Positions 2,285 through 19,822 of a stretch of DNA of 20,000 bases are shown piece after piece. The position numbers and the translations under genes were made by a program. Source of the stretch: Welwitschia mirabilis. Taxonomy: Eukaryota. The DNA is taken from positions 46,988,346 to 47,008,345 of the forward strand of contig JBOZIK010000001.1 in the NCBI GenBank assembly GCA_051453625.1. Direction: 5' to 3'. Below the pieces are notes generated by a model, which was not told the DNA's origin, did no database searches, and saw only the letters and a list, made by a program, of their open reading frames with translations. Positions within the stretch are counted from its first letter, which is position 1. The number at the start of each line of letters is the position of its first letter.

Positions 2285-3149
2285 TTATAAATATGAAATG
2301 CATCATGCAAGGTTAAGTGGAGATAGCTAAAATGTGTCCCATGGAAGCTCGAAATGATCCCATAAATTGGTTTTTAATGTGTAAAAATCATAAAAATATG
2401 TCTTCCCCTCTTAAAAGTATCAATACATCCTGTATTACCTACTCATGTGAAGAAAAATGCAAAACATGAGAAAAAGTTGAAATGCATAAAAGTGGTGGAC
2501 CCCACATAACGTCAAAAATGAAAGTTCTTAAATCAAAAATCTAATTTAGTAGAATTATAGAGATTGTCATATTGATCAATTTACCCTAAAGGACCACTAC
2601 ATTGTGACTTATTATTTTTGAGAAAATAAGATTTAAAATTAAAAACCTAATTCCACCTTATAAAACATACAATTCAAGATATCTCACAAAATACATAGTG
2701 AAAATCAGATTCATAAGTACCAAATTGAAGATTATGAAAAATTGAATGGTATAGACAAGAACTACATGCTAAAAGCTCAAAAATAGAAGAAAAAAGTCAA
2801 AAATAATGAGGGAAAGAAAAATATTCCTCATTTTTCAAAATTCATTAAAAGTTTGTAATCTGAAATACTAATCTAGTGGGGGAAACTTTCAAGACATTAG
2901 TAAGTATAAAAGTAACTATTCTCTCTTAGAGGAAAAGATGAAAATAATAGAGAAATGAAAAAAATGAAGGAAAAAAATAGCCTATTTTTATCACATTATC
3001 ATCTAGTTGCATCGTCTAGACAATAGCCCTAGTATGACTCTCAGAAAAATCTTAGCTATTGTCCTCCATGTTGTTTAGACAACCATGTGGATGATAAGAC
3101 TTTGAAAAGTTTTAGAATAATGAAAATATTAGTTGAACAAGTTAGGCTC

Positions 3150-4080
3150 AGATATCAGCGTGACAAGATTAAGTTAATGAGAAGTACAATAAGAGTTATA
3201 ACACACATCAATAAGTAAAACACAAATTTTTCCGTACATAATTTTATAAGGTAAAAAACCAAGAGAATTATGCCAAGTAGTATGGTAAGTCTAAAGAACA
3301 TCGTTAAGCTCAGAAGCACAAGATTTCTTATTAACAAAAATAAGTTTTTGCAACATTTTCTTAATTTCGCTGTTTGCATTTTCAGCTTATCCATTAGTCT
3401 AAGGATGATAAGCATAAGCTACTCTATGTTCTATTCCAATGGACAAAAGAAGTTTTCTAAAAAGTTGACTAATAAAATAAGTTTTTTTAGTCACTAATAA
3501 TAATCTTAGGAAAATCAAATATCTAAAAAATATGAGTTTTAAGAAAATGAGGCATCATTCAAAGAAATAGGAATAGCTTTAGCCCATTTAATAATATAAT
3601 CTATAGCCACTAAAAATGTAATGTTTATCATGAAAAGGTGGGTCAACAATGCCTATAAAATTAATACCCTAACAATCAAAAGGTTCACATTTAATAATAG
3701 ATCTAAGAATCATCTCCTAAGCATGAATAAAGCTATCATAACACTGACAATAATAACACCTTCTGACAAAATCAAAAGAATCCTAAAAAAGGGTAGATCA
3801 ATAATAACCAGAATGAAGAATTTTCATAGCTATTTTTATCCATTAAAATGACCTCCACAAATACCACCATGATAAAGATGAAAGATTTTAAATTTTTCTC
3901 AATCAGGCATACATTTTCGCATAACTTGGTCTTTACATTTACAATATAAATGAGGCTCTATTCACTCATAGTCACCTATTCTATGTAGAAAATATTTGCA
4001 TTGATTATAATTCTAATGTTATGATGTTTTTGTTATAACAAGGTAATTAACAATATCCACATACCAAGGAGGATGATGAG
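3150..4080 (-). pseudogene. pol: Integrase of the outer element (decayed)
   Basis: Manual translation: PPWYVDIVNYL, CKDQVMRKC..LYHGGICGGHF (HHCC region), KWAKAI, AYHP*TNG*AENANSEIKKML, LGFLPYKIMYGKIC. Many stops and frameshifts. Confidence 0.85.
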
Positions 4081-4199
4081 TAGAAGATATAACAAAAAGT
4101 TACTCATCCGAAAAAGAATTATTAATGAAAGAATCATTAAGAGGAGAAGAAAGACAAGACAAATAATCAGCAACATAATTATGCTTCCTTGCTTTATTG

Positions 4200-5480
4200 A
4201 TGATGGTCGAACTAAATTCTTACATGAGGAGGATCAATCTAATCAATCTAGAACTAGAATCTTTTTTAGTCATAAGGTAACAAATAGCAACATGATTAGT
4301 ATAAACATTTGTATGACATTTGTATGAAAGCTTTAAAGATAATCTCTAAATGTATCAAGGCAAAAGATGATTGCTAACATTTCCTTCTCTGTAGTAGTGT
4401 AATTTATTTAAGTTCTAGACAGAGTTTTGCTATGGAAAGATATAACTTTAAAATCATTTTCATATTTTTGATAAAGTACCTGATCCATGACAAAATTACT
4501 AGCATCACATATCAATTCAAAATCTTTCTCTCAATCAGGTCACATTACAATAGAAGCATAAGAAAGTTTATGTTTAAGTCTATCAAAAGAAAGCTGACAA
4601 GATTCATTCTATTTAAATTTAGATTTTTTTTATAGTAACAAGTGAAGGGGTTTACAAATGTTTGCATAATTATGAATAAATCAATGATAAAAACCATAAT
4701 AACCAAGAAAAAATCTAACCTATTTTACATTAGTTGGAGAATTTAGGTTTTGAATAATATCAACCTTTTTAGGGCCCATCCTAATCCCATTTTTGAAATA
4801 TGATGAACTAAAACAATTTCACTTTCAACTAAAAATAATTTTTTTAAACTCAAATGTAGGCCACTAGAAATGCATCTATCAAGGAATTTCTCTAATATTT
4901 CTAAGATTTATTCAAAAGTTTCAGCATAAATAGATAAGTGATCCATAAAAATTTCTATCAAATCCTCTAATATATTAGAAAAAATATCCATCATAGGATG
5001 CTGAAAAGTACCAGAAGCATTACAAAGTCCAAAAGACATGCATCTAAAAGCAAAACTACCAAAAGGTAAAGTAAAAATAGTTTTAGCTTGGTCTTCACTA
5101 GCAATACAAACCTAATTGTAACCACTATATATGTCAAGAAAACAATAAAATGTATATCCCTAAATCCTATTAAGTATCTGATCAAGAAAAGTCAAGGATA
5201 GTGATCTTTTTTGGTTTCTTTATTTAATTTTCTAAAATCTATACACACCCTCCATTTCCCACCTCTCTTAGATGCTAATTTCAAAGGAATAACCCACTCA
5301 CTATTAGCTATGACATAAATGATTTCAACATCCATTAATTTTATGATTTCATCTTTAACAACTTGCTTAAGCACTAGATTAAGTCTATCTTGGGGTTGCC
5401 TAATAGGTTTTGCATTATCCTCAAGGTAGATTTTATGTTGAATAATTGAGGTAGGAATGACTGTCAAATCTTTATGGGAC
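4200..5480 (-). pseudogene. pol: Reverse transcriptase and RNase H of the outer element (decayed)
   Basis: ORF 5192-5467 (QHKIYLEDNAKPIRQPQDRLN...KWRVCIDFRKLNKETKKDHYP). Downstream remnants of MxFGLCNA, and the RNase H motifs CDASNF and NYTTTEKEMLAI. Confidence 0.92.
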
Positions 5481-6039
5481 TAAGAAAATGCATTTACCTT
5501 AGATTGAAAAAGAGAGATTAAGCTCGATTCTTGTTAAGGGAAAAGATTTTCATTAATGATCAAAGGTTTGTTTAGATCATTGTATAGAAAGATGTATTTC
5601 AGTTCACTAAGTAAAGATTTCATATTTAGATTTTTATTTTTTGTTAAATTTTTAGGAAAATCCATTATTGTCTCAAGTTGTCGTCTGGATGTTAATAGTG
5701 GACGACCACTCTTAAAATAAGAAATCTCAATTTTGCTTAGATCTCGGACTTCTACATAGTTCACAGACTCAGTTTTTTTACTCTACAGATCAAAATAATC
5801 AAATTCTAAATAGTCAAAATCAAGTTGATCTACATTGAAAATGTTTAAGTTGTCTACTTATAGTTGATCATCAAACAAAGTTGGTTTGTGAAGGATTGAC
5901 CATCTTTTTTCAAGTGGATGGTGCTGTAAAAATAAAGTTGGTTTCATTTCTTCTTTCACACTCAAATCATTACCTAAATATTTTTTAGCCGTATCAAACA
6001 CCCTTATTAAAGACTTCTTATTTCCTAAATAACACTCCA

Positions 6040-6343
6040 TAAAACCTGTTATTGTATCTATAATACACTAGGTTATTACATTAAAATCTCTACTTATAAG
6101 TAAAAGATAACCACCGTTATGTTCAACTACTATCATAACTACATCAATAGGGTAAAATTCTTCCTCAATATGAATGAATAAATCCTTAATTATGCCTTAG
6201 GATTTCTTAATAGATGTATCTGCCAATTCTACGACAATCCTTGTAGGCTCTATTCTATTTTCCAATCTAAGTAATTGAAAAATGTGCAAGGGCATAATGT
6301 TGATACTAGTTCAAATATTAATTAAGGATTTCTTAATCTGTCT
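6040..6343 (-). pseudogene. pol: C-terminal part of the outer element's aspartic protease
   Basis: Reads RQIKKSLINI*TSINIMPLHIFQLLRLENRIEPTRIVVELADTSIKKS*GIIKD, the decayed form of Athila ALxDLGASINxMP...LADRS. Confidence 0.85.
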
Positions 6344-6348
6344 ATCTT
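6344..6348. repeat. Left target-site duplication of the inner element (ATCTT; right copy ATTTC at 16276-16280)
   Basis: 5-mers directly abutting both LTR ends, 3/5 identical, both differences C/T. Removing the insert plus one copy restores the protease frame. Confidence 0.7.
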
Positions 6349-6764
6349 TGTAATGTTCCATTTTACTATTTTTCAATTACTTTGTATAAAATAGAAAATT
6401 TAAAATAATATGCCAAGATCCATATGAATAACAAGGAACAATTTAAAGAGAATAAGTATTTAATTATTAATAGCAGCAGATTACATTCTACATCATTAGC
6501 AAATAGCCTTGGACTAGTGGTTATGGGTAAAGACATGAATTATGATCTTACTCCCCCTCCAGGTATCCTTGGGGATCAGTCAAGATTGTCATTGGTTATA
6601 TCCACCTAGTATATCCACCCCACCTAATGCTATAGGCTTAAATTACATAATGAAGGAACACATCTTTTCATATTTAGGTCACATCCATTCACATATGTTG
6701 TTAATTATGCTTAATTAGCACTTAACACACTTAATTATATAATTAATGATTTTGGAACATTACA
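6349..6764 (-). repeat. 3' LTR of the inner chromovirus (416 bp)
   Basis: Starts TGTAATGTTCCA and ends TGGAACATTACA (perfect 12-bp terminal inverted repeat). About 80% identical to 15857-16275 by hand count. Confidence 0.95.
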
Positions 6765-6777
6765 TTCCCTCTTTTCT
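6765..6777 (-). other. Polypurine tract of the inner element
   Basis: Minus strand AGAAAAGAGGGAA immediately precedes the LTR start TGTAATG. Confidence 0.85.
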
Positions 6778-6949
6778 AGAAATCATGTTCATCCTTGAGA
6801 ACAGTCTCTCCTCAACTTACATCATTTCTGAATCCATGCTCCTCAGAGTTATTTTCTGTATCATCTACAAAACATAATAGAAAAGAACATATATCATTTA
6901 TTTAATAGTTACATTGATAATGCAACAAAAAATGGTAGATCAGGCTTAA

Positions 6950-7100
6950 TTAAAAAGTTTGGAAAAGGTCTCTTACGTGTACTCCCTGTTTTCTTATGTT
7001 TTTTAATCATAATGGATCCATTAAATAAGTACTTCTTTTATACTCTTATTTCTTAGTTGCCTGGATCTGGTACTTAGGATGTTTTCTAGCTAGAGGGCAA
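6950..7100 (-). pseudogene. Integrase C-terminal chromodomain (decayed)
   Basis: Reads ENILSTRSRQLRNKSIKEVLI*WIHYD*KT*ENRSTRKRPFPNFL, matching the ILD..LRNK.I..V.VQW..ATWE..P.LF pattern of Tekay-type chromodomains. Confidence 0.75.
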
Positions 7101-10100
7101 AAGTCAAATTGGATTTGAGCATGATATGTTACCAGTTCAAGATGTAGTCCTAGTTTCTATCTTAATGGTATGGTTTCATTATGCGCACATAAAAAACTGG
7201 ATGTATTTGGGACATTTGTGGAGGAAGCTCTAGTTTGTATGCTAGATTCCCAATCTTTTCAATAATCTTAAATGGACTATAGAACTGTGGTACTAATTTC
7301 TGTACTTTCCCATTTTCAAGGAGTTTCTTTTTGGCTTGATTCTTAGTAGTACTTGTTCACCTATTTGGAATATGCAGGACTGGTGCTTCTAATCGTAATA
7401 TTTCTTATATCTATGTTTTGCTACCTGTAGCTATCTTTTTATTTTATTTATTACTTCCTCCATCATCTTTAATTCTAAAGGCGCTATATTTTCTGATCTT
7501 TGTGAAGGATCTAACCATGTGATAGGGGTAGAATAGTTTTTACCATACATTGCTTTGAAGGGTAAATAGCAAATGGAAGTCTAAAGCGTTTGGTTATAAG
7601 TACAATTTGCCAAATATAGGTAGTTATCCCATTGTTTGGGCCTTCCTGCCACATGATACCTTAGAGTTTCTTCTAGTATATGATTTATTCTTTCTATTTG
7701 ATCATTTATTTCTGGGTGATATATAGTACTAAAACTGAGTTTGGTACCTAAGTGGTGGAAGAAGCTTTACCAAAACTCAGAGAAGAACTTTCGATTTCGA
7801 TCAAGTACTATAACCTATAGTGCATAATGTAATCTAAAGACTTCCTGTATAAAATGAAGGGCTAGCTCTTCTACTATATTAGTACTTTAAACTATGATAA
7901 AATGAACGATCTTGATTAACATGTCTACATAAATGAAAATTGCATCATGTTGTTTGTTAGTAAGGGGTAAATCGGTGATGAAGTCCATAGAAATCTCTTT
8001 CCATTTCCATTGTGGTATTCCCAATGGCTGAAGGAGACCAATGGGTCTTCCTTAATCGATCTTCATCTACTAACATATAGAATAATTACAGATGTATTAC
8101 TTTAAATCTACTTTCATTCTAGGCAAAAAGTAGGATTTCTATAATTGGTGGTAGTCTCTGACAAATTCTGGATGTCTTGCATATGTAACTTGATGTAGTT
8201 TAGACATTAGCTTTCTTCTCCATGGACCTAATGGAATGTATAGTCATCTTCTTTTTAGAAGGAATCCATTCTATGAGATCAGGTATATCTCTATTTCTTT
8301 TTCTTCTTGGACCTATTGATATATGTCTTTGAAGTGTGGATCATCAATCAAGGATGTTTTGAGAAAGGTGGATAAGTCAGATGTAACTATGATAGCTAAC
8401 ATACATTACATCTTGTTCAAAGCATTTTCTACTTTGTTTTCTTTACCAAGGTGTGTTATAACTTGAAGTCGTATTCTACTAGTAACTTACTCCATCTTCT
8501 CTGCCGCATATTTAAAATGGGTTAATTCTAGAAATCCTATCTAAGCTTTTATGATCTATTTTAAAAAGGAATTTGCTTCCCACAAGATAGTGCCTCTAAA
8601 CTTTCAAGGCATGCACTATGACTAACAATTTCAAATCATGTACGAGATAGTTTTCTCATGTTAGTTCAATTTCTGTCATTCATATGCAATCACCTAATCA
8701 TCTTAGCTAAGTATGACCCCTATTCCTCAAGTGGAAGCATCTATGGTGACTGTAAATGATTTGTTTATATCTATAATATTAAGGTCCTGTGATGTTATAA
8801 GTAGCAACTTTAATCTAAGAAATGCCTCCTTGCATTTGTCATCTAATTGAAATATATTTGTTGCTTTGGTTAAGTTTTTTAATAGTGCTGCAAGTTGAGA
8901 AAATCCTAAAACAAATTTTTAATAGAAGCTAGTCAATCCTAAGAAAATTTGTACTTGAGTGACATCCTTTAATTTTAGCCATTTCCTTATGACTTCTACT
9001 TTAGTCAGATCTATTGTTATTCCTCTACTAGAGATGATATGTCCTAAATAAGTGATTTCTATTTAAAAGAATTCACATTTGCTTAATTTTAGTTTAAATT
9101 TATACCTGGACAAGACCTGTAGAACTTTCTTCAAATGTGTCACATGATCATCATGGTTTTTAGAATATATTAGAATATCATCTAAAAATACAACCACAAA
9201 TTTATCCAAGTAAGGTCGAAAAACAGCATTCATTAAAATCATAAAAATGGCTGTAGTATTTGTTAAACGAAAAGGCATTACTATAAACTTGTAATGTCCA
9301 TATCTTGTTTTGAAAGCAGTCTTATAGACATATTCATCCTTGATGTGATTTGATGGTAGCTAGATTTTAAATTGATCTTTGAAAAGTACTTGGATCCTTG
9401 TAGTTGATCCAATAGATCATCGATTCATGGTAGTGAGTATCTATTCTTGATGTTTACTTTGTTGAGTTATCTGTAGTTAATTTAAAGCTACAAGGTATCA
9501 TCCTTCTTTTTAATAAAAAATATTTGTGCCCCCATGATAATACACTAGGGTACATCTTTCCTTCCAACAATAGCTATTCGATTTATAACTTTAGTTCTCT
9601 TAGTTCTACTACTGAGAAATGATAGGATGCTCTGGCTATTGACTGTGCTCTAGGGATTAAATCAATTGCATGCTATACTTTTTTCTTGGGCGGTGGTATT
9701 TTTGAATCTTCAAATACATCTGAGAATTCTTTTAGTTCTTCTAGTATAGAGTAATCTTCCTTATGATCTTCTGTCAGTACTAGAGCAATAAACACTTGTT
9801 TATTTTTGACAATTTTTGTGATTTGTTTAGGTGATGTTAAATATATCTTCTTACTCTTTCCCTCCCCTTTAAAGATTCATTTTCTGAATGAAGGAGATAG
9901 TTTCAAGGTTCTTTAGTGAAAGTTAATCTAAACATTATATTTAATTAAGAAAGGGATTCCTAAAATGACATGGTATTCTCTAATTTGAAAGACATAAAAC
10001 TTATCTCTAAGGTGTAAATCATGAATGGTAAAGTGATAAGGGCAGCAATCCCGTCTTATGTAAGAATACTATCCCCCTACAACTCCTATGGTAAACTCTT

Positions 10101-10250
10101 GTTCTTGAAACAGGTGATATTTAATTTGTAAAATAAAGATGTTGAAATGAAATTCTGTGATGCACTACTATTAACGAGGAATAAAATAGAAAAATATAAA
10201 ATATAACTACATAATTCTAAGATGGAGTGTTGATTATGAATTGTACCTAT
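7100..10250 (-). pseudogene. pol: pol (PR-RT-RH-INT) of the inner chromovirus, decayed
   Basis: PR LFLVNSSASQNFIS (~10140-10190). [41 protein letters not shown] (9063-9278). RH TIDAST..GVIL. INT GLLQPLGIPQWKWKEISMDFITDLP, FSTIYHPEINDQIERINHILEETLR, IGNLAYKLELPPQMSQIHPVF. Confidence 0.93.
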
Positions 10251-10299
10251 TTGAATGATAGCATAGACTCTTTTGAATGGCATGGACTGACTTTAAAGA

Positions 10300-11350
10300 G
10301 CTTGAGGCTGATTGTGCTGAGGAACATTTGGTGGTTGTGCTTTGGATGGACAGTTCCTGGTAATTGGACCTCTCATGTGGCACTCATGGCAAGTAAGATT
10401 AGTTCTATATGGCTTTCTTGCTGGTGGTGTGATTGAAGGAGGGTGCCTATCTCCTTAGTATAGTTGATCTATCCATCTATTTTCTTATCCTTGGAGATAG
10501 TGCCTTATTTTTTAATATGCATCTTCTATGGACTTGATTTCCAAAGTGCATAGAATGCTTTAAAGTTTGAGTGACAATGTTTCAATAAAACTGTTAATAA
10601 GCTACTTCTCTATAAAATTCTTTTGGTACTCCATGAGGCACTGGAATTTATATCAATGTTCATCTAATGGGTGTTTACCCCAGCGTGGGCACTAAAACTC
10701 CACCATTTAATCTTCAATAAAATCTTCTAAAATGAACTTCTTTTAAATTCTTCAGTGAAGGTATCCCATGATATCCTACATGAGTGTTTCTATTGATATC
10801 TGAACCACCATTCCTGTGTGTTTATGATACCATATACATCTATCTTTTTAGAGGTATATTTTGAAGTTCGAAATAATTCTCCAATTTTTGGATCTAAGAT
10901 ATGGCTTCCTCACTTATTCTAGCCTTGCCTTCAAAGGTCTTTAAGTGTATCATCTTTGCAATTTCCTCTCTTTCACATTGTTTAATATTGGGATGGTTAG
11001 ATCTATTTGTCAGGAAAACTTAAAGGTTGGCCTATGTATTTAATAATCTTATTTGAATGTTTTGGATGTCAATATCAGCTGTAAGAATATGCTATCCTGA
11101 TGTAGATGATGGTTCTTGAGATGCCCTCGGATTGTGTTCTATAGGTCTTTTTTCTAGGCGAGAAAGAAGGCTATTAGTCCTACTAGTTAGATGTTCATTT
11201 TGAGAGTGGATATGATTAATTTGGCCTTCTAGTGACTCAATTTGCTCATTGACCCTATGTTTCATGATGTGCTAGTGGGTTCAATGTCCTCTTGAACTCA
11301 TACACCTCTGCCTTATTCTATAAGTATTCTCTCTCTGCCTTTTCTCCTTT
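10300..11350 (-). pseudogene. gag: gag of the inner chromovirus, decayed (start approximate)
   Basis: TFEGKARISEEAIS*IQKLENYFELQ, TQEWW...ISWDTFTEEFKKKF, and a zinc-knuckle remnant CHECHMRGPITRNC (~10351-10392). Confidence 0.8.
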
Positions 11351-11509
11351 AGTGGTAATGTGTTTTTTTAGTATTGTTGGTGGTAGTTAGGGACTTGTAA
11401 CCACCTAGTAGTTAAGAAAATAGTTAGAGAAAACAATTTCTAGCAGTTATCATAAGAACCTTGCTAACATGAATAACAACTACCAAAGAGAATCTATGCG
11501 TTGCTAGGC

Positions 11510-12180
11510 ATCCAAGGATGGCATCATAAATCCAAGTGTGACATTGGACACCTGTGTGTACTAAGTGCGACATCAGACATCCAAGTGCAACGTCAGAGGT
11601 TTTAGAAGGATTTTGGGTCTTATGGAGTAACACTGAGGAGTGACAATGCATCTAGGATATGAGTGTGACATTGGACATCCAAGTACAATGTTGGGCTCCT
11701 AAGTGTGATGTTAGGCCATCAAGTGTGATGTCAAAGCCTATTGTACCGATGAACGAACAAAAGAGATGATGGTAGATTTTAGGTCTACGAGTGGTAAGTG
11801 CAATCTCATGCATCCAAGTACAATGTGGAACACCCAAGTGAGACATCGGGGTTCTTTAAGTAGGTGAGTAGAATAGGTGATGTTTGTGAAAAAATGGTAA
11901 AATCTAGGCCTATGAAGAATAAGTGCGATGTCTGTCACCCAAGTGCGACATCAAGCTTTAAAGGGCTTCGAAATATGATGTTGAATTTGGCAAGACCAAG
12001 TATGACATTGGCCTTCAAAGTGTGACATTGACCATTAAAGTGCGACATCGATATTCTAGGAGTACGACATCGGCATTCTAAAAGTACAATGTTGGCTCTG
12101 AAGTATGACATTAACCATCTGAGAATGTGACATCAACCTCTAAAGTGAGACATTGACCATCTAGAAGTATGATGTTGGGT
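11510..12180. repeat. Degenerate tandem array, ~20-22-bp unit, core AAGTRYRAYRTYRR, at least 22 copies
   Basis: Copies start at about 11534, 11563, 11583, 11661, 11681, 11701, 11721, 11796, 11816, 11836, 11921, 11941, 11971, 11998, 12018, 12038, 12060, 12082, 12101, 12123, 12143, 12165. Confidence 0.9.
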
Positions 12181-12305
12181 TTCAGTCCACTATAATTCAG
12201 GGCCTTAATCTATTCATGGTTAACTAGAGTTTTTTGCATTTAACTAAGATTTAGTTAACTATAGTTAACTCTTATTTTAGGTTAGGTTAAACCTTGGTCC
12301 ACCAC

Positions 12306-12313
12306 TATAAATA
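12306..12313 (+). promoter_or_regulatory. Candidate TATA box (CTATAAATAG context)
   Basis: Matches the plant TATA consensus and lies upstream of the plus-strand gene model. Function inferred. Confidence 0.4.
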
Positions 12314-12496
12314 GCTCCATGATCCCCTTATTTTTTACTTCTTTTATTACATGCCTCTATAATCAAATTGGTAGCTCTTTCATTTATTATTTCAATTATC
12401 TATTTCTTTGATACTTTTATTTTCTTCTTTTCTTTTATTTTAATATTTTCCTTTTTCTTGTTTCTTATATAGGCCCTTCCACAACCTTCTTTTGCC

Positions 12497-12504
12497 TATA
12501 AATA
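12497..12504 (+). promoter_or_regulatory. Candidate TATA box (CCTATAAATAC context)
   Basis: Matches the plant TATA consensus, ~260 bp upstream of ATG 12761, followed by a pyrimidine-rich leader. Confidence 0.5.
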
Positions 12505-12760
12505 CGAGTTCCCTCTAGCATTTGTAGATGTACTTCTTCCTCTGGATTCTAGACTTTGCCTTACCATTTCTTAAAATTATACTAGTGTCAGATCTACAGA
12601 GTTAGAAATACAGCAATGCACTTAGGAACAAGGATTCTCTTGGATCTTTTCCTCTAATATATTAGATCTATATGGCTTTCCATCTTTCTATCTTTGTCAT
12701 CATACTATTCTTTTCATCCTGGATTTCTTTTACTCTTCTTTTAATCTACACACTACTACC

Positions 12761-15672
12761 ATGATCCATTCTCATCATCATCTAATTCAGATTTTGGAAG
12801 AGAGCATTCAACTAGTCTTTGAGATGAGTAAAGGTAATCATGTTCCTCCTAAAGTTTTTCATTGTGATGAGGACTTTTATTATTTCTTAGTTAATCACTT
12901 GGATGATTTTGTATGTGTGTAGGAGATGAATACCCACTGCCATGAGATCTCTATTGCTAATTTTACCACTCCATATTTTGCAGCTTCTGGGGAGCTAATT
13001 GCTGGTAGAGCCTTTCTTCATGATCAGGTGAATGAGATTCCTACTTATATAATTTACTTATTCCCCTTTATAACTAGTGGAGTTTTTTGAGATTGGGCCT
13101 CCGTTGTCTATTCTTCCAGCCTTTCCAAGTTAACCCACTTGAAGAGGAATGGAGATAGGAAGAAGTGTTTATATGGCCATGTCTTAATAGGTTTATATTT
13201 TACTTCTATGGATCGAAGGGATCTACAGCAATTTAGGGCTATTTATAAAGATTCCTCCTTTGTTTTGTCTCTTCATAAGATCCTTGCTTGATCTTTATTA
13301 CATTCTCGTTCTTTCTTATCTATGTAGGTAAAGGTTCTGGGAGTTATGAATTTGGAGAAACATCTCAGGGTACTTTTCCTATTCTATCTGAGATATGAGT
13401 TTTACTGAGGAATCTTGCTATTAAGTATATTTATGATAACTCTGACTTTTTCATTATTTGATATTTGTAGATAAGGAAGAATTCAAGATCTGGTGCCTCT
13501 TCCTGCCAGAAACATGATAAAGCTCCAATAAATTACCTTATGCCTATGGAACTAGAAAAGGAAGAGGATGCACCCCTTAGCTTTTCTCGGTGACACTGGC
13601 CCTGTGGGGTATTACCTATTACCATCTCTTCTTTTTNNNNNNNNNNNNNNNNNNNNNNNNNNNNNNNNNNNNNNNNNNNNNNNNNNNNNNNNNNNNNNNN
13701 NNNNNNNNNNNNNNNNNNNNNNNNNNNNNNNNNNNNNNNNNNNNNNNNNNNNNNNNNNNNNNNNNNNNNNNNNNNNNNNNNNNNNNNNNNNNNNNNNNNN
13801 NNNNNNNNNNNNNNNNNNNNNNNNNNNNNNNNNNNNNNNNNNNNNNNNNNNNNNNNNNNNNNNNNNNNNNNNNNNNNNNNNNNNNNNNNNNNNNNNNNNN
13901 NNNNNNNNNNNNNNNNNNNNNNNNNNNNNNNNNNNNNNNNNNNNNNNNNNNNNNNNNNNNNNNNNNNNNNNNNNNNNNNNNNNNNNNNNNNNNNNNNNNN
14001 NNNNNNNNNNNNNNNNNNNNNNNNNNNNNNNNNNNNNNNNNNNNNNNNNNNNNNNNNNNNNNNNNNNNNNNNNNNNNNNNNNNNNNNNNNNNNNNNNNNN
14101 NNNNNNNNNNNNNNNNNNNNNNNNNNNNNNNNNNNNNNNNNNNNNNNNNNNNNNNNNNNNNNNNNNNNNNNNNNNNNNNNNNNNNNNNNNNNNNNNNNNN
14201 NNNNNNNNNNNNNNNNNNNNNNNNNNNNNNNNNNNNNNNNNNNNNNNNNNNNNNNNNNNNNNNNNNNNNNNNNNNNNNNNNNNNNNNNNNNNNNNNNNNN
14301 NNNNNNNNNNNNNNNNNNNNNNNNNNNNNNNNNNNNNNNNNNNNNNNNNNNNNNNNNNNNNNNNNNNNNNNNNNNNNNNNNNNNNNNNNNNNNNNNNNNN
14401 NNNNNNNNNNNNNNNNNNNNNNNTCGGTGACACTGGCCCTGTGGGGTATTACCTATTACCATCTCTTCTTTTCCTTTATTTTCTCCTCTTTTTTTTTGAC
14501 ATAGGTTTTTTCTTGTTTTATTATAGGTTCTTCGCATAGAGACTTTGGTCAAGGAGGATATGGACTTTACTACCTCTGGAGAAGACTTTCCTTTGACAGC
14601 TAAGGAAGGAGTGCATTACTGTAAGTGAAACTTTTCCTTCTGTTCCTTCGACTAGCCTCTTCATGGATTTATTATTCCCTTTTAATTCTCAAGTGGAAGA
14701 GGTACTTAATAATTTTAATACCTTAATGTATTAGGAGGATATTTCCTATTCCACCTCCTATTTTCAGCCTCCAGGTCAAAGTCCTCTTGTTGCTTACCCT
14801 TCTCTAGAGCCTTTTCGCCACTTGCCTGTAGCTCCACAATCCATTGTAAATGAATAGGACCAAGTATCTTATTGCACCAATCAACTTCTGTCAGTGGTGG
14901 AGATCTTGTACCCTAAGGTTAAGGAGTTGATGGATCCGTTAGAGGATTATCAGTCCTTTTTCAGCCTTTTTCATACATAAGTCCTGCATCCTTCACACCT
15001 AGATGATGTCTACATCCATCATTGATCCAAGCCAGCAAATGTATCATAGCACTTTAAGTACAACCATTTTACTCATTTCACTTCCCATTATTCTTTATAG
15101 CATAAATGAACTACTTCATCTAAGATTTCTACAACATGGTTTATATGATGGAGTCATTTTACTGCATGGCTCATCATAGAATTGAAGCGCGGAAGTCCAT
15201 GAGTAGTTAGCTCCAGATGTTGAAGAATGAGGTGGAAAACATTCGTTTATCAGAGAAGAGATCATGGGTAGATGCTTTACATATAGCTACTATAGAAGAA
15301 ATTTAGGCTACCTTATCTACTCAGCTGATAGAGAGTGAAAGGATAATTCAAGCTTATGAGGATTGTTTGGCCATTACTATTGACGACATCAATGTGTTAT
15401 ATCATGGCAAAGAGCTCTTGAAGGAACATCTGTTAGGGACTTTAGTTAATTATAGTAAGCTTTATATGAAGCTCTATAAGTGGTCATATTCCATTACTAG
15501 GGTAGATTCTATACCGACTTCTTCTTCAGTTGAAATCAATACTACAGCAGTTCCTACATAGCCTACTGAGATGAAAGTAGTTTCAGGAGACATGAAGCCT
15601 CTTATCCCAGGCGTGAAGGGTCACAACCCTGTTACCTTCTCTATGGAGGATCTCCTTCCTCCTCAGCAGTGA
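12761..15672 (+). pseudogene. Antisense, intron-containing extra gene of unknown function inside the chromovirus leader (decayed, ~590 codons)
   Basis: Exon model 12761-13250, 13328-13392, 13471-13608, 14527-14620, 14694-15672 joins in phase. One frameshift near 14960-15000. Internal stops are TAG/TAA/TGA, consistent with C>T/G>A decay. Contains the 15367-15561 ORF. Confidence 0.65.
13637..14423. other. Assembly gap (787 N)
   Basis: Run of N flanked by an identical 49-mer at 13587-13635 and 14424-14472. Confidence 1.
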
Positions 15673-15840
15673 TGATTGGTTTTTCTTGTCAAGGTATCAT
15701 GCACCTTATTTTCACTAACACCTTATTTTCTTTAATCATCATGTTATTATTCTTTGATGCATTGTTTGGACTTTGGCTATTTAATTTATAAACTGAGTTC
15801 TTTCCTTGTTTTTCTCAAGTAGTGGATTACTACTTGTTAT

Positions 15841-15854
15841 TGGCTTTGATACCA
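15841..15854 (-). other. Primer-binding site of the inner element (tRNA-iMet)
   Basis: Minus strand TGGTATCAAAGCCA, one G>A from canonical TGGTATCAGAGCCA, 2 nt from the LTR end. Confidence 0.92.
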
Positions 15855-15856
15855 AA

Positions 15857-16275
15857 TGTAATGTTCCATTTTACTAATTTTAGATTACTTTACATAAAAA
15901 GGAACATTTAAAATAATATAATAAGATTCATAGGAATAACAAGGAATAATTTAAAGAAAATAAGGCTTTTACTATTTATAGCAGTAGATTACATTCCACA
16001 TCATTAGCAAGCAGCTTTGGACCAGTAGTTATAGGTAAATATGTGGACTACGACTTTAGTCCCTCTCCTAGGCTCTTTTGAAGATTAACCAAGGTTATCA
16101 TCGATTACATCCACCTAGTCTATCCAAATCCACCTAATACCGTAGGCTTATATTATATAATGAAGAGACACATCTTTCCATATTTGGGTCACACCCATTT
16201 ATATCTCTTGTTAACCATGCTCAGTTAGCGCTTAACACACTTGATTATACAATTATAAAATTTTGGAATATTATA
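15857..16275 (-). repeat. 5' LTR of the inner chromovirus
   Basis: Starts TGTAATGTTCCA and ends TGGAATATTATA (decayed TGGAACATTACA). Colinear with 6349-6764. Confidence 0.95.
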
Positions 16276-16280
16276 ATTTC

Positions 16281-18154
16281 CTTCTAAATTGACACTAACA
16301 ATTATTGCCCCCGGATCTTTAAACTTTAGACATTTCTGTAAAACTAAGTTATTAATGGATTGAACTACGAACACTTTATTAGGGATGGTTCATTTTTGTT
16401 TCCTCCTAATCAAGTCTTTCCACAACTTAGAATACTTAGAGTTCTCTTGTAAAAGTTTCTAAAATTATAAATAGATACTCACATTTTACATTAAGGTTTT
16501 TAAATGTTCATCAAAGGTAGGATTTGTGTTTAATTTATTAAGCCAAGGGGTAGCAGATTTCTTATAAGAAGAACTTTTCTTTTTTTTGCTTAAAGGATAA
16601 GGAAAAGAATGATTTTTCAAAATTTCTATATCCTCTTATTCATTATTTTTATCACTTTGAGATGTTGAAGCCTTTAGGTTGGGTAAAGATTGAGTGGTAA
16701 GTGACCCTTATGGTATTTGATTAGTAAGCATGGGTTGTTACAAAATACTCACAATATTTTCAATGTTGAATTTTGTTCTTTCTTGTGTTTTTTTCAATTC
16801 ATCAATGGAACTTCTAAGTGGATCAACTTGGTTTTGTGAGTTGGATGCTTACTTGATTATTTAAGTTGTTTGATTGAAAATTTATGTTTTAAAATCTCTT
16901 TTTAAATGGTTGAAAATTAGGATGATTTATTTGAAAATTTTTGAAGTTGGATTATCTATTCATCCTAAGTTGAAAATTATTGTAATTTTAAATTTGATTT
17001 TGGTTTTGGTTTTCATTAAAGTTTGAAGATCTTTGATTGAAAGAACACACTTCTTCATAAATTATTTCTTTATATTTTGACAATAAAGGACACTCTTTCA
17101 TAACATGATAGGTGTCTTAATGTAAATCACAAGTTAGAGCTACAACTACACTCTTCTCTATTGTTACCTTTGCATCTAAAATCATCTAAGTGTATTTTTA
17201 TAAAGTTGAGGTGAGATTCTTAATGACATTTTTTGTTTCATTTACAGTTATTATTTCTTTATTTTTGGCTTAACCTCTTTAAGATCTTTAATGATTTAAC
17301 CTATAGTTTAATCTTCTCTAAATGAGGTAACTCACTTTCAGTAACTCTTTCAACACTTTTTAAGCATTTTATAAAGTAAGATTCAATAAATTTCCTTTAC
17401 ACGAAAAATCAACTAGCTGCTTAGTTTGATTGTTGAGTCCACTATAAAAGTAGTCTACCAATTCTTTTTGAGAAAAATCATCTACAAGGTTCAAATGTAA
17501 AGCAACAAAAAATCTCTCATAGATAAAGGCATAATCTTCATTAATCTATTGTTGGAAGTTGGTTATTTCTTTCTTACATTTTCTAATGTTAGTTTCACTT
17601 ATGAATATCTTAATAAAATCTTTTTAAACTAACTCCATGATTTTAAACTCTTATAAGGAACCATTCTTAACCAAATTTTATCTTTACATTTTAAAGTGAT
17701 GGGAAAAATAACTATGTAAGTTAGATCACTTATGCTTTTCTTACCATTTTTTAGAGTAAGCACTAACTGTTTGATGCCGACAATTGTTGTAAAGGGTCTT
17801 TATCATGTTCACCACTATAAATGGAATAAACATTTAGGTTTATAAGTTCGATACCATTAACAGGAGGTAAATCAAAAGGAGTTTGAATTTCACATTTTTT
17901 TTATTAGCAACTAGTTCTCTAAGAGTGATATTTGCGTTAGGGTTTATAGGTGTAGTCATAGGAGTTCCAATAACAATGAAGGGATTAGGCAAAGTGACTT
18001 GATTTTACTTTTGCAATGAGCTAGACGTATTTAAAAATTGAAAAATATCATTGAAATAATCTTCTAAAAAGTTTTCTTTCACAAAATTAGATTTTAAAGA
18101 TATAAATGTAGAAACTTCTGGAATTTTTAAAACTTACATATATTTGGTGTGCAT
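16281..18154 (-). pseudogene. gag: gag and protease N-terminus of the outer element, decayed (start approximate)
   Basis: KEITNFQQ..ERF..ELVDYFYSGLNNQTKQLVDFSCKG (Athila-type gag core, ~17340-17580), Cys/His remnant CDLH*DTYHVMKECP (~17085-17132), and LKFKDPGAIIVSVNLE directly before the insertion. Confidence 0.82.
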
Positions 18155-18724: not shown

Positions 18725-19822
18725 TGATGTATATTTGTGCAAATAATTATGCTTGAGAAGATCCTGTCATTCACAAATAAAATAGATATTCTACACAACA
18801 TAATACACTAATATAGATGGGAGTGAACTTGAATGTTGTAATCCATTGAAGGCCGAGGCTAGAAGAAAGAGAATTAATTTTAACAAGAAACACTTACATA
18901 TTCTAGCAATAAAAATAAATTGCAATATATAAAATCATAATGCAATACAATTATGCAAAGTTAATCTAGGAAAGAAAAGAAATAATGCACCTAAACTAAA
19001 AATGCTCAACCTTAATAAAAGTTGCCCTCATAACCTATATCTCTTAAGAAACTGTCAGTAAATTGGAAGCAATATAAACTATGACAGATAAGTAACAAAA
19101 AGCAAAAAAAATGAAAAAGAGTTCATTGTATTGATCCCAAACCAAATTCATGTTACAAAGTAGCCATACCTCAATGGAGAAAGCACAACCCAAAATTAAA
19201 TAAGAATTCTCTCTGCAGCTACTAAGGATGGATCTTCGACACTTTGATCTCCTGTCACGAGAATTTTTCATGCAAGTGAAGAAGATGGAGTTGAAGATGG
19301 AATCAATACTTATTGATAATAGACACACAAATAATAAAATAGATAAACAGGTATAGGAACAACCCTAATGACCATGCAAGAGACATACAGACAAATGGAA
19401 AAAGTTAGGTGAATGTTTAGTGGAGTGTTATAATAGATGTCATTCTGCTAGGCATCTAGATGATATAGGAGACGATGCCACCTCATAAGTATTCCATGTC
19501 AATTGTCAGATTAATCACAGTTAGCATCCTCATTAGCTTCAACTGGTCTATCATCCGTATAGTCATTCGAATAATGAGGTGAATGATAGGCTTTTATAAA
19601 GGTTAATCTGATTCATCAGTCTTAATGTTTGCAAGAAGTTTACTTCAAAATAGAAAGTATTATGAACTACTCTAAATACTACAAAACTTCATAGAGATTG
19701 CATGTTTTTGTATCTTTCATATTATCTCTCCACTATCATGGAAATCTAGTGTAAATCTATTTAATATCCTACAAAACTACTCAAAATACCCTATCATATA
19801 TATACAAGTTCGTAGCACAACA
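18725..19822 (-). repeat. 5' LTR of the outer element (~1.1 kb)
   Basis: TG at 18725 next to the PBS and CA at 19822 where homology with 1-492 ends. Imperfect terminal repeat TGATGTAT / GCACAACA. Confidence 0.82.

Follow-up and report, generated by a model that had tools for sequence, protein, structure and literature searches.

Does the leader of a plant retrotransposon carry a spliced gene that runs against the element's own gag-pol? The question is raised by a stretch of 20,000 nucleotides (nt) of Welwitschia mirabilis DNA (GenBank assembly GCA_051453625.1, contig JBOZIK010000001.1, positions 46,988,346 to 47,008,345; the window hereafter), which holds on its minus strand a Ty3/gypsy long terminal repeat (LTR) retrotransposon bearing the probable relic of a chromodomain. 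Between the primer-binding site of this element and its gag region lies a long leader, and an earlier note on this DNA had read positions 12761-15672 of the plus strand as a gene of five exons, antisense to gag-pol. The analysis described here found on the plus strand of the leader what is left of a real protein-coding gene that runs antisense to gag-pol. It is probably the pseudogene of an intron-containing antisense gene that was borne by the element family, was open when this copy inserted and has since decayed together with the element.

The coding signal was measured against 1000 dinucleotide shuffles for stop depletion and 2000 shuffles for codon periodicity. Segment 12761-13249 has 2 stops in 163 codons, compared with 10-17 in its other five frames and a shuffle mean of 11.5, and segment 15211-15669 has 2 in 153 (10-18 in the other frames); none of the 1000 shuffles was as low in either case. 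Segment 14696-14977 has 2 stops in 94 codons, compared with 4-11 in the other five frames (shuffle P=0.055). Codon periodicity was found in all three, with chi-squared values of 27.4 (12761-13249), 24.8 (14696-14977) and 33.4 (15211-15669), each unmatched in 2000 shuffles, and its shape is that usual for coding sequence: position 1 is rich in G, position 2 is rich in A and poor in G, and position 3 is rich in T. No periodicity was seen in three controls, namely the T-rich stretch upstream of exon 1, 14978-15208 and an array of short motifs nearer to gag. Exon 1 and the last coding segment served to train a positional model, which chose the proposed frames on segments outside its training set, including 14696-14977, and whose preferred frame changed at the proposed intron positions. 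The earlier claim of an antisense coding sequence in the leader was thus borne out by stop depletion and periodicity in three segments. A sense-strand 5' open reading frame (ORF) in the style of Ogre or Tekay was rejected as a candidate; stop-poor windows on the minus strand were confined to the low-complexity motif array at 11535-12155, where all three minus-strand frames are poor in stops because of the motif repeat.

That the leader was never a gene, but a non-coding sequence, perhaps with an antisense non-coding RNA, whose frames are a compositional accident of a T-rich strand, is barely credible. T-rich stretches such as 12323-12760 are indeed poor in stops without being periodic, two of the proposed donors are not GT, and neither a homologue nor a fold was found for the product; against this, shuffles preserving dinucleotides never matched the stop depletion of the two long segments, the same periodicity pattern recurs in three separate segments, and a homologue appears to be spliced at one of the predicted introns.

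The architecture of the antisense relic is given in Table 1, together with the other features of the element. All peptides and coordinates quoted in the earlier note are present in the sequence. Its intron lengths of 73-81 nt agree with the measured 77, 78, 81 (assembly gap collapsed) and 73 nt, and composition and site reading confirmed its description of T-rich introns ending in AG, with GT at donors 3 and 4 and AT at donors 1 and 2, for which the note had presumed decay from G to A. T and G make up 51% and 11% of the introns, and 33% and 20% of the exons; the acceptor is AG in four of four introns, each after a T-rich tract. The gap in intron 3 is a run of N at 13637-14423 with identical flanks of 49 nt (13587-13635 and 14424-14472), and its true length is probably zero, since the duplicated flanks suggest that two overlapping scaffold ends were joined without being merged. 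Putative intron 4 has no stop in the frame that the next exon uses and could be coding after a frameshift.

Table 1. Features of the minus-strand element and of the antisense relic in its leader (frame, codon start position modulo 3)
Feature	Positions	Strand	Remarks
5' LTR	15857-16275	-	About 419 nt; BLAST and MAFFT against 6349-6764
Primer-binding site	15842-15854	-	Two bases past the end of the 5' LTR; read from the sequence
gag-pol relic	6952-11270	-	CCHC knuckle, reverse transcriptase, RNase H, integrase, SH3_Tf2-1 and probable chromodomain relic; many stops and frameshifts
3' LTR	6349-6764	-	Purine tract at about 6765-6777, just ahead in the element's sense
Array of 12 AGTGYGACATYG-like motifs	11535-12155	+	Between gag and candidate promoter; spacing 20-175 nt
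Two CTATAAATA boxes	12305-12313, 12496-12504	+	T-rich stretch upstream of exon 1; candidate promoter
Exon 1	12761-13250	+	163 codons from ATG; stops at 12920 and 13088
Intron 1, putative	13251-13327	+	77 nt; AT...AG in this copy
Exon 2	13328-13392	+	22 codons, no stops; frame switches from 2 to 1 here
Intron 2, putative	13393-13470	+	78 nt; AT...AG in this copy
Exon 3	13471-13608	+	46 codons; one stop, at 13591
Intron 3	13609-14526	+	81 nt with assembly gap collapsed; GT...AG; apparently skipped in a diverged spliced homologue
Exon 4	14527-14620	+	31 codons, no stops
Intron 4, putative	14621-14693	+	73 nt; GTAAGT...AG, perfect donor
Exon 5, first part, Pro/Ser-rich	14694-14977	+	Frame 2
Stretch between the parts of exon 5	14978-15210	+	Frameshifted coding part or further intron
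Exon 5, helical part (last coding segment)	15211-15672	+	Frame 1; two internal stops, ends TGA TGA

Splicing was addressed with RNA reads. Two RNA runs carrying the species label of the DNA run X1 (12.5 million and 11.1 million records) were compared with 10900-16300 at 85% likeness; this copy is silent in both, and none of the 15 joint rows listed contains an RNA-supported joint. Three reads of the RNA run X14 match 13574-13609, at the end of exon 3, and on both flanks depart from the window sequence. A further RNA run, X17, has depth in the bin that spans this match, 13434-13614. For the left overhang, no place on either strand of the window matches better than 13541-13566, directly upstream, and none of 200 shuffles reached its score. 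The best match of the right overhang in the window is 14533-14560, and the alignment is collinear from 14527 on, where exon 4 begins. Each flank has an indel of 3 nt, or one codon, relative to the window (that on the left was inferred by eye, the printed local alignment being ungapped), and three of the differences between the reads and exon 4 are, by eye, third-position changes in the proposed frame. Because the overhangs match exon 3 upstream and the start of exon 4, the reads indicate that a diverged homologue is expressed and is spliced exactly across predicted intron 3. Of the splicing of antisense introns that the earlier note had proposed, the joining of intron 3 is thereby upheld, in homologous RNA (three reads). 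The 36-nt core 13574-13609 is the sole part matched by the expressed homologue at 85% likeness or more; it is more conserved than its surroundings, whose likeness was put by eye at only about 75-80%.

The homologue might also be a gene of the host. If a master copy long ago captured a piece of a host gene, antisense and with its introns, and the family has carried it since as a passenger, the spliced reads would derive from the host parent. The expressed spliced homologue is less like this copy than the DNA contigs of the family are, as such an old transduction would have it, and plant LTR retrotransposons are known to capture genes (PMC7264820). We nevertheless hold this origin to be unlikely, for reasons that lie in the repetition of the leader, its state at insertion and its protein product.

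The distribution of the leader among other copies was examined in Logan contigs of two DNA runs, X1 and X4, the latter with a second species label, at a likeness of at least 85% to 10900-16300. The stretch was matched by 15,263 contigs in X1 and 14,672 in X4, mostly 85-95% alike. Depth was found in 27 of 30 bins, and since the three empty bins fall in the run of N, only the gap interrupts the coverage of the leader. Summed word depth in X1 was 238-1877 in leader bins, 116-250 in the motif array, 442-771 in gag and 2659-8188 in the LTR, whereas exact matches to this copy had a depth of 8-10, as for single-copy pieces. Among the rows listed, 5-109 distinct contigs cover a site in the leader and 23-83 a site in gag. 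The leader is therefore no private insertion of this copy, since contigs of two species labels cover it about as densely as gag, but a repeated part of the family in both; the possibility raised in the earlier note, that the region is unique to this copy, is contradicted by the two DNA runs. It seems that the whole repeat family carries the leader gene. This sits poorly with transduction, given that captured genes are usually sense-oriented and present in one or few copies (PMC7264820), whereas this one is antisense, is repeated about as gag is under two species labels and belongs to a stretch matched by thousands of contigs.

Repetition of the leader could have another source, namely an unrelated repeat, either another transposon or its cargo, that inserted in the leader and whose copy number is its own. 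Depth in X1 is uneven over the leader (116-1877), and the short contigs give no linkage of the leader to LTR or gag, both of which would suit such an insertion. Against it, a search within the leader for terminal repeats, direct or inverted, that would bound a nested element was negative, and a Pfam search of six leader frames gave no transposase, reverse transcriptase (RT) or other transposable element domain. Among the rows listed, the well-supported loose ends lie at the LTR edge (15857) and inside the LTR (16083 and 16126), with none within the leader, and coverage is continuous outside the N gap. We therefore consider an unrelated insertion very improbable.

The state of the antisense gene at the time of insertion was estimated from the LTRs. 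The pair, in direct orientation, is 80.5% identical over 416 aligned nt, with a Kimura two-parameter distance (K) of 0.235, and K/2, or 0.117, was used as the change probability per site since insertion in a neutral simulation of stop-free frames. On average, the simulation added 1.35, 1.47 and 0.90 stops to the three segments, compared with 2, 2 and 2 observed; for frames that had never been open, the expectation is about 11.5 stops for either long segment and 5.6 for 14696-14977. The antisense frames were thus probably open and intact when this copy inserted, as the observed stops match simulated neutral decay. The exon 1 stop at 13088 coincides with a site listed as private to this copy in the contig comparison. 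Frames open at insertion would not be expected of an unselected passenger carried for long, although a recent capture would fit them too. In the pol relic (7305-9532, minus strand), stops exceed the same neutral expectation three- to sixfold (RT, 7 versus 2.0; integrase, 14 versus 4.2; a third comparison, 4 versus 0.7), whereas the antisense frames have about as many as expected; expressed per 100 codons, pol has 2.9-3.6 stops in stretches aligned to homologues, compared with 1.2-1.3 in the two long antisense segments. The excess in pol may be due to frame slips inside the alignments, to a pol that was already defective at insertion or a copy that was non-autonomous, or to longer constraint on the antisense gene.

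The gene, of about 590 codons, would encode an orphan protein. No Pfam family was found in any plus frame of the leader at an expect value (E) of up to 1, nor in any of its six frames, and a HMMER search of 1.84 billion representatives with exon 1 gave no credible homologue. The sole match (E 4.5e-5), a protein of 755 amino acids made of near-identical repeats, aligned in seven stretches with 24% identity and was judged spurious. A word-index search among near or longer proteins found no relative of the C-terminal segment, a PDB sequence search returned nothing below E 0.29, and the Protein Atlas gave no lead for the uninterrupted ORF 15307-15558 (best score 0.76). Scans of metagenome and viral contigs with two protein pieces and a pattern of LTR end and primer-binding site had no match. 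A control search of the same database with pol gave 465 matches at E up to 1e-10, those listed being mostly 42-52% identical, and shows that the family itself is missing from the database; the blanks of the protein searches accordingly say little about the family and argue only against a widely conserved host parent. In transduction, such a conserved parent of exon 1 should have appeared among these representatives, which, to judge by the pol matches, include plant proteomes, while the finding of no element-related domain in the leader frames would be in keeping with a host origin. AlphaFold2 models from the single sequence were unusable for exon 1, with a mean predicted local distance difference test score (pLDDT) of 33.5; for the C-terminus, they predicted helices at residues 2-30, 34-53 and 57-96 followed by disorder, with a mean pLDDT of 63 in one of five models.

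Several observations weigh against a family-borne spliced gene as described above. A literal reading of the 588 codons of the exon chain meets 28 stops, of which exons 1-4 hold 3 and exon 5 holds 25, because 14696-14977 and 15211-15669 sit in different frames. The stretch between them (14978-15210) has 7 stops in 77 codons of the incoming frame and no periodicity, its best frame drifting from 2 through 0 to 1, and exon 5 therefore requires at least one frameshift or a further, unseen intron. The phase-consistent chain of the earlier note accordingly holds where the frame switches at the proposed introns and fails in exon 5, which splits into two frames. Exons 2, 3 and 4 are too short for statistics of their own, and donors 1 and 2 are AT here, the rows listed giving no reading of other copies at these sites. 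In the two RNA runs only 29 and 15 reads matched, none of them at 95% likeness or more, and 28 and 14, respectively, lie only partly on the stretch. The support for splicing consists of three reads from a homologue that is less than 85% alike outside the 36-nt core and is either element-borne or a host gene; the score of the right overhang was reached somewhere in the window by 42 of 200 shuffles, so that its weight rests on its position. Summed depth does not measure copy number, nor do the contigs reach far enough to join the leader to LTR or gag. Finally, no homologue was found for exon 1 in a database of 1.84 billion representatives, albeit one that lacks this family, or for the C-terminus by word search.

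Upstream of exon 1, the two TATA boxes of the earlier note are present on the plus strand as CTATAAATA at 12305 and 12496. The window contains three matches to CTATAAATA, the third being that of the LTR on the minus strand, and since 12 of 200 shuffles gave at least three, their number is weak evidence alone. The array between gag and this candidate promoter is beyond chance: with up to two mismatches, the AGTGYGACATYG-like motif occurs 15 times in the window, 12 of them in the array, and none of 200 shuffles reached 15. These motifs could be binding sites or a packaging signal.

The element that hosts the antisense relic is an old, dead retrotransposon, every gene of which is broken. G+C content varies between 23% and 39% along the window, which is AT-rich and without a long ORF. 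The LTR ends are of the inverted TG..CA type, the outer TG being mutated in the 5' LTR, and the primer-binding site next to it is one that we take to resemble the 3' end of initiator tRNA-Met. On the minus strand, Pfam gave RVT_1 (E 1.1e-19), RT_RNaseH_2, Integrase_H2C2 and SH3_Tf2-1 (E 1.2e-16) in that order, and a CCHC knuckle is found upstream in the translation, which fits an order of gag, (protease), RT, RNase H and integrase. High-scoring pairs of tblastn were collinear with seven homologues, protease being visible as weak pairs only. With E allowed to reach 5, Pfam Chromo still had no match on the broken C-terminal frame of integrase; the sequence around 7128-6952 does align to residues 1143-1203 of the homologue P0035 (E 1e-6, 31% identity), and the Pfam Chromo domain of P0035, residues 1155-1202, lies inside the aligned part. 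The leader runs from 15841 to the start of gag at about 11270, or about 3.7 kb after removal of the N run and the duplicated 49-nt flank. The 5' LTR has a perfect CTATAAATA at 15973-15981 on the minus strand, the sense of the element, which is presumably the element's own promoter; in the 3' LTR, the matching CTATAAATA has been lost through mutation. The whole region is enclosed by an older, outer pair of LTR-like repeats (57-492 and 19385-19822, 72% identical), and the minus strand holds a second Ty3/gypsy RT and integrase relic at 5455-3222. The element studied here seems to be nested in an older gypsy element. The leader gene has no homologue elsewhere in the window, the older outer element included.

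Extra genes in plant LTR retrotransposons have been described, and the leader gene was compared with them. The earlier note had presented it as an undescribed kind of 5' accessory gene, which is too broad, as extra 5' ORFs occur in Tekay chromoviruses (PMC11728184, accessible part) and a survey of extra ORFs in the LTR retrotransposons of plants has named a class eORF-5'R (Neumann et al., 2019; PMC6317226, accessible part). According to the accessible text of the latter, members of eORF-5'R lie between 5' LTR and gag in reverse orientation and, like most eORFs, have no known domain, in all of which they resemble the leader gene. The leader gene has the position that defines this class: it occupies 12761-15672 of the plus strand, with the primer-binding site on one side and the minus-strand gag on the other. 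No plus-strand ORF of the region is longer than 98 codons, its reading being interrupted by decay as well as by putative introns, compared with the at least 250 uninterrupted codons demanded in that survey (PMC6317226); a gene with introns would escape such a demand. The accessible part stresses eORFs for non-chromoviruses (OTA superclade) (PMC6317226), whereas the leader gene belongs to an element with a probable chromodomain.

Chromoviruses also host the 5' aORFs typical of Tekay, reported from sunflower Tekay group 2, with conservation in 500 of 523 sunflower elements, and from rice RIRE3, RIRE8 and Retrosat-2 (PMC11728184, accessible part). As there described, they share with the leader gene its place in the 5' region of a chromovirus and a product that is proline-rich, with C-terminal helices and disorder, and their proteins are largely disordered and without similarity between species (PMC11728184). 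The accessible part of that paper mentions neither 'antisense' nor introns for these aORFs, which we took as sense, while the leader gene is antisense and split; the two are likened by description (PMC11728184). The aORF-3R genes of Grande (gene23), RIRE2, Retand and PvRetro13 are, like the leader gene, antisense orphan accessory genes in Ty3/gypsy elements; they are found in most copies, an internal promoter of their own was shown for Grande, and gene23 is nuclear (PMC7264820). They differ from the leader gene, which is split and located 5' of gag, in being described as continuous ORFs, placed after pol and before the 3' LTR in Tat/Retand elements, which are not chromoviruses (PMC7264820). 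The aORF of Retand carries Transposase_28 (PF04195), of which there was no Pfam match in the plus frames of the leader at E up to 1.

Spliced antisense transcripts of retroelements are also known outside plants. HBZ of human T-cell leukaemia virus type 1 (HTLV-1) is a spliced antisense retroviral gene that starts in the 3' LTR; it has no sequence relation to the leader gene. Antisense promoters in HTLV have been mentioned (PMC7264820). TART of Drosophila, a non-LTR insect element, has antisense transcripts with several introns, which, as proposed for the leader gene, are located on the antisense strand, removed from antisense RNA and kept in genomic RNA (PMC1636488, accessible part). It differs in its element type, and the accessible text does not state that the antisense RNAs are coding (PMC1636488); nor is there any sequence relation to the leader gene. 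In the literature searched, subscription papers and supplements aside, no spliced antisense gene in the leader of a chromovirus was found. It is the combination of antisense orientation and splicing in a chromovirus leader that this literature lacks; 5' extra ORFs themselves are known.

For the antisense gene that we favour, the following course may be proposed. RNA polymerase II would transcribe it from its own TATA promoter near 12305 or 12496, beside the motif array, towards the 5' LTR. It is established that antisense introns survive retrotransposition, which is the basis of antisense-intron retrotransposition reporters. The introns of the leader gene would be antisense in the genomic RNA of the element and, because they would not be removed before reverse transcription, would be kept through it and passed to new copies. 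The spliced mRNA would be translated into an orphan protein that begins with some 160 N-terminal residues, has a middle rich in Pro and Ser, and closes with about 95 residues of C-terminal helices and a disordered tail. By analogy with gene23 of Grande, the antisense ORFs of RIRE2 and Retand and HBZ of HTLV-1, this protein would most likely be an accessory or regulatory one, and regulation of the element would be the most likely role of the leader gene, although the regulator or anti-silencing module of the earlier note drew no support from the searches for a Pfam family, a homologue or a fold. The antisense transcript could also pair with genomic RNA over the leader to form double-stranded RNA and possibly feed small-RNA silencing; formation of double-stranded RNA with genomic RNA has been suggested for other antisense aORFs (PMC7264820). 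That the family still maintains a working spliced antisense leader gene with its own promoter, that the X14 reads come from a live copy of the element and that the product controls expression or silencing of the element is a tentative extension, and one that we find rather doubtful. If true, the leader gene would give plants a counterpart to the spliced antisense genes that complex retroviruses carry.

Extra genes are common in the LTR retrotransposons of plants yet unexplained, and surveys that look for long uninterrupted ORFs are blind to those that bear introns. If an antisense gene found throughout a family keeps its introns, this suggests that it is inherited as a unit with a transcription of its own. 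Such a gene would, if the reading is true, offer a concrete case for asking whether extra genes serve the element, through control of expression, nuclear steps or escape from silencing, or are passengers. Intron-aware searches of long chromovirus leaders may find more such genes.

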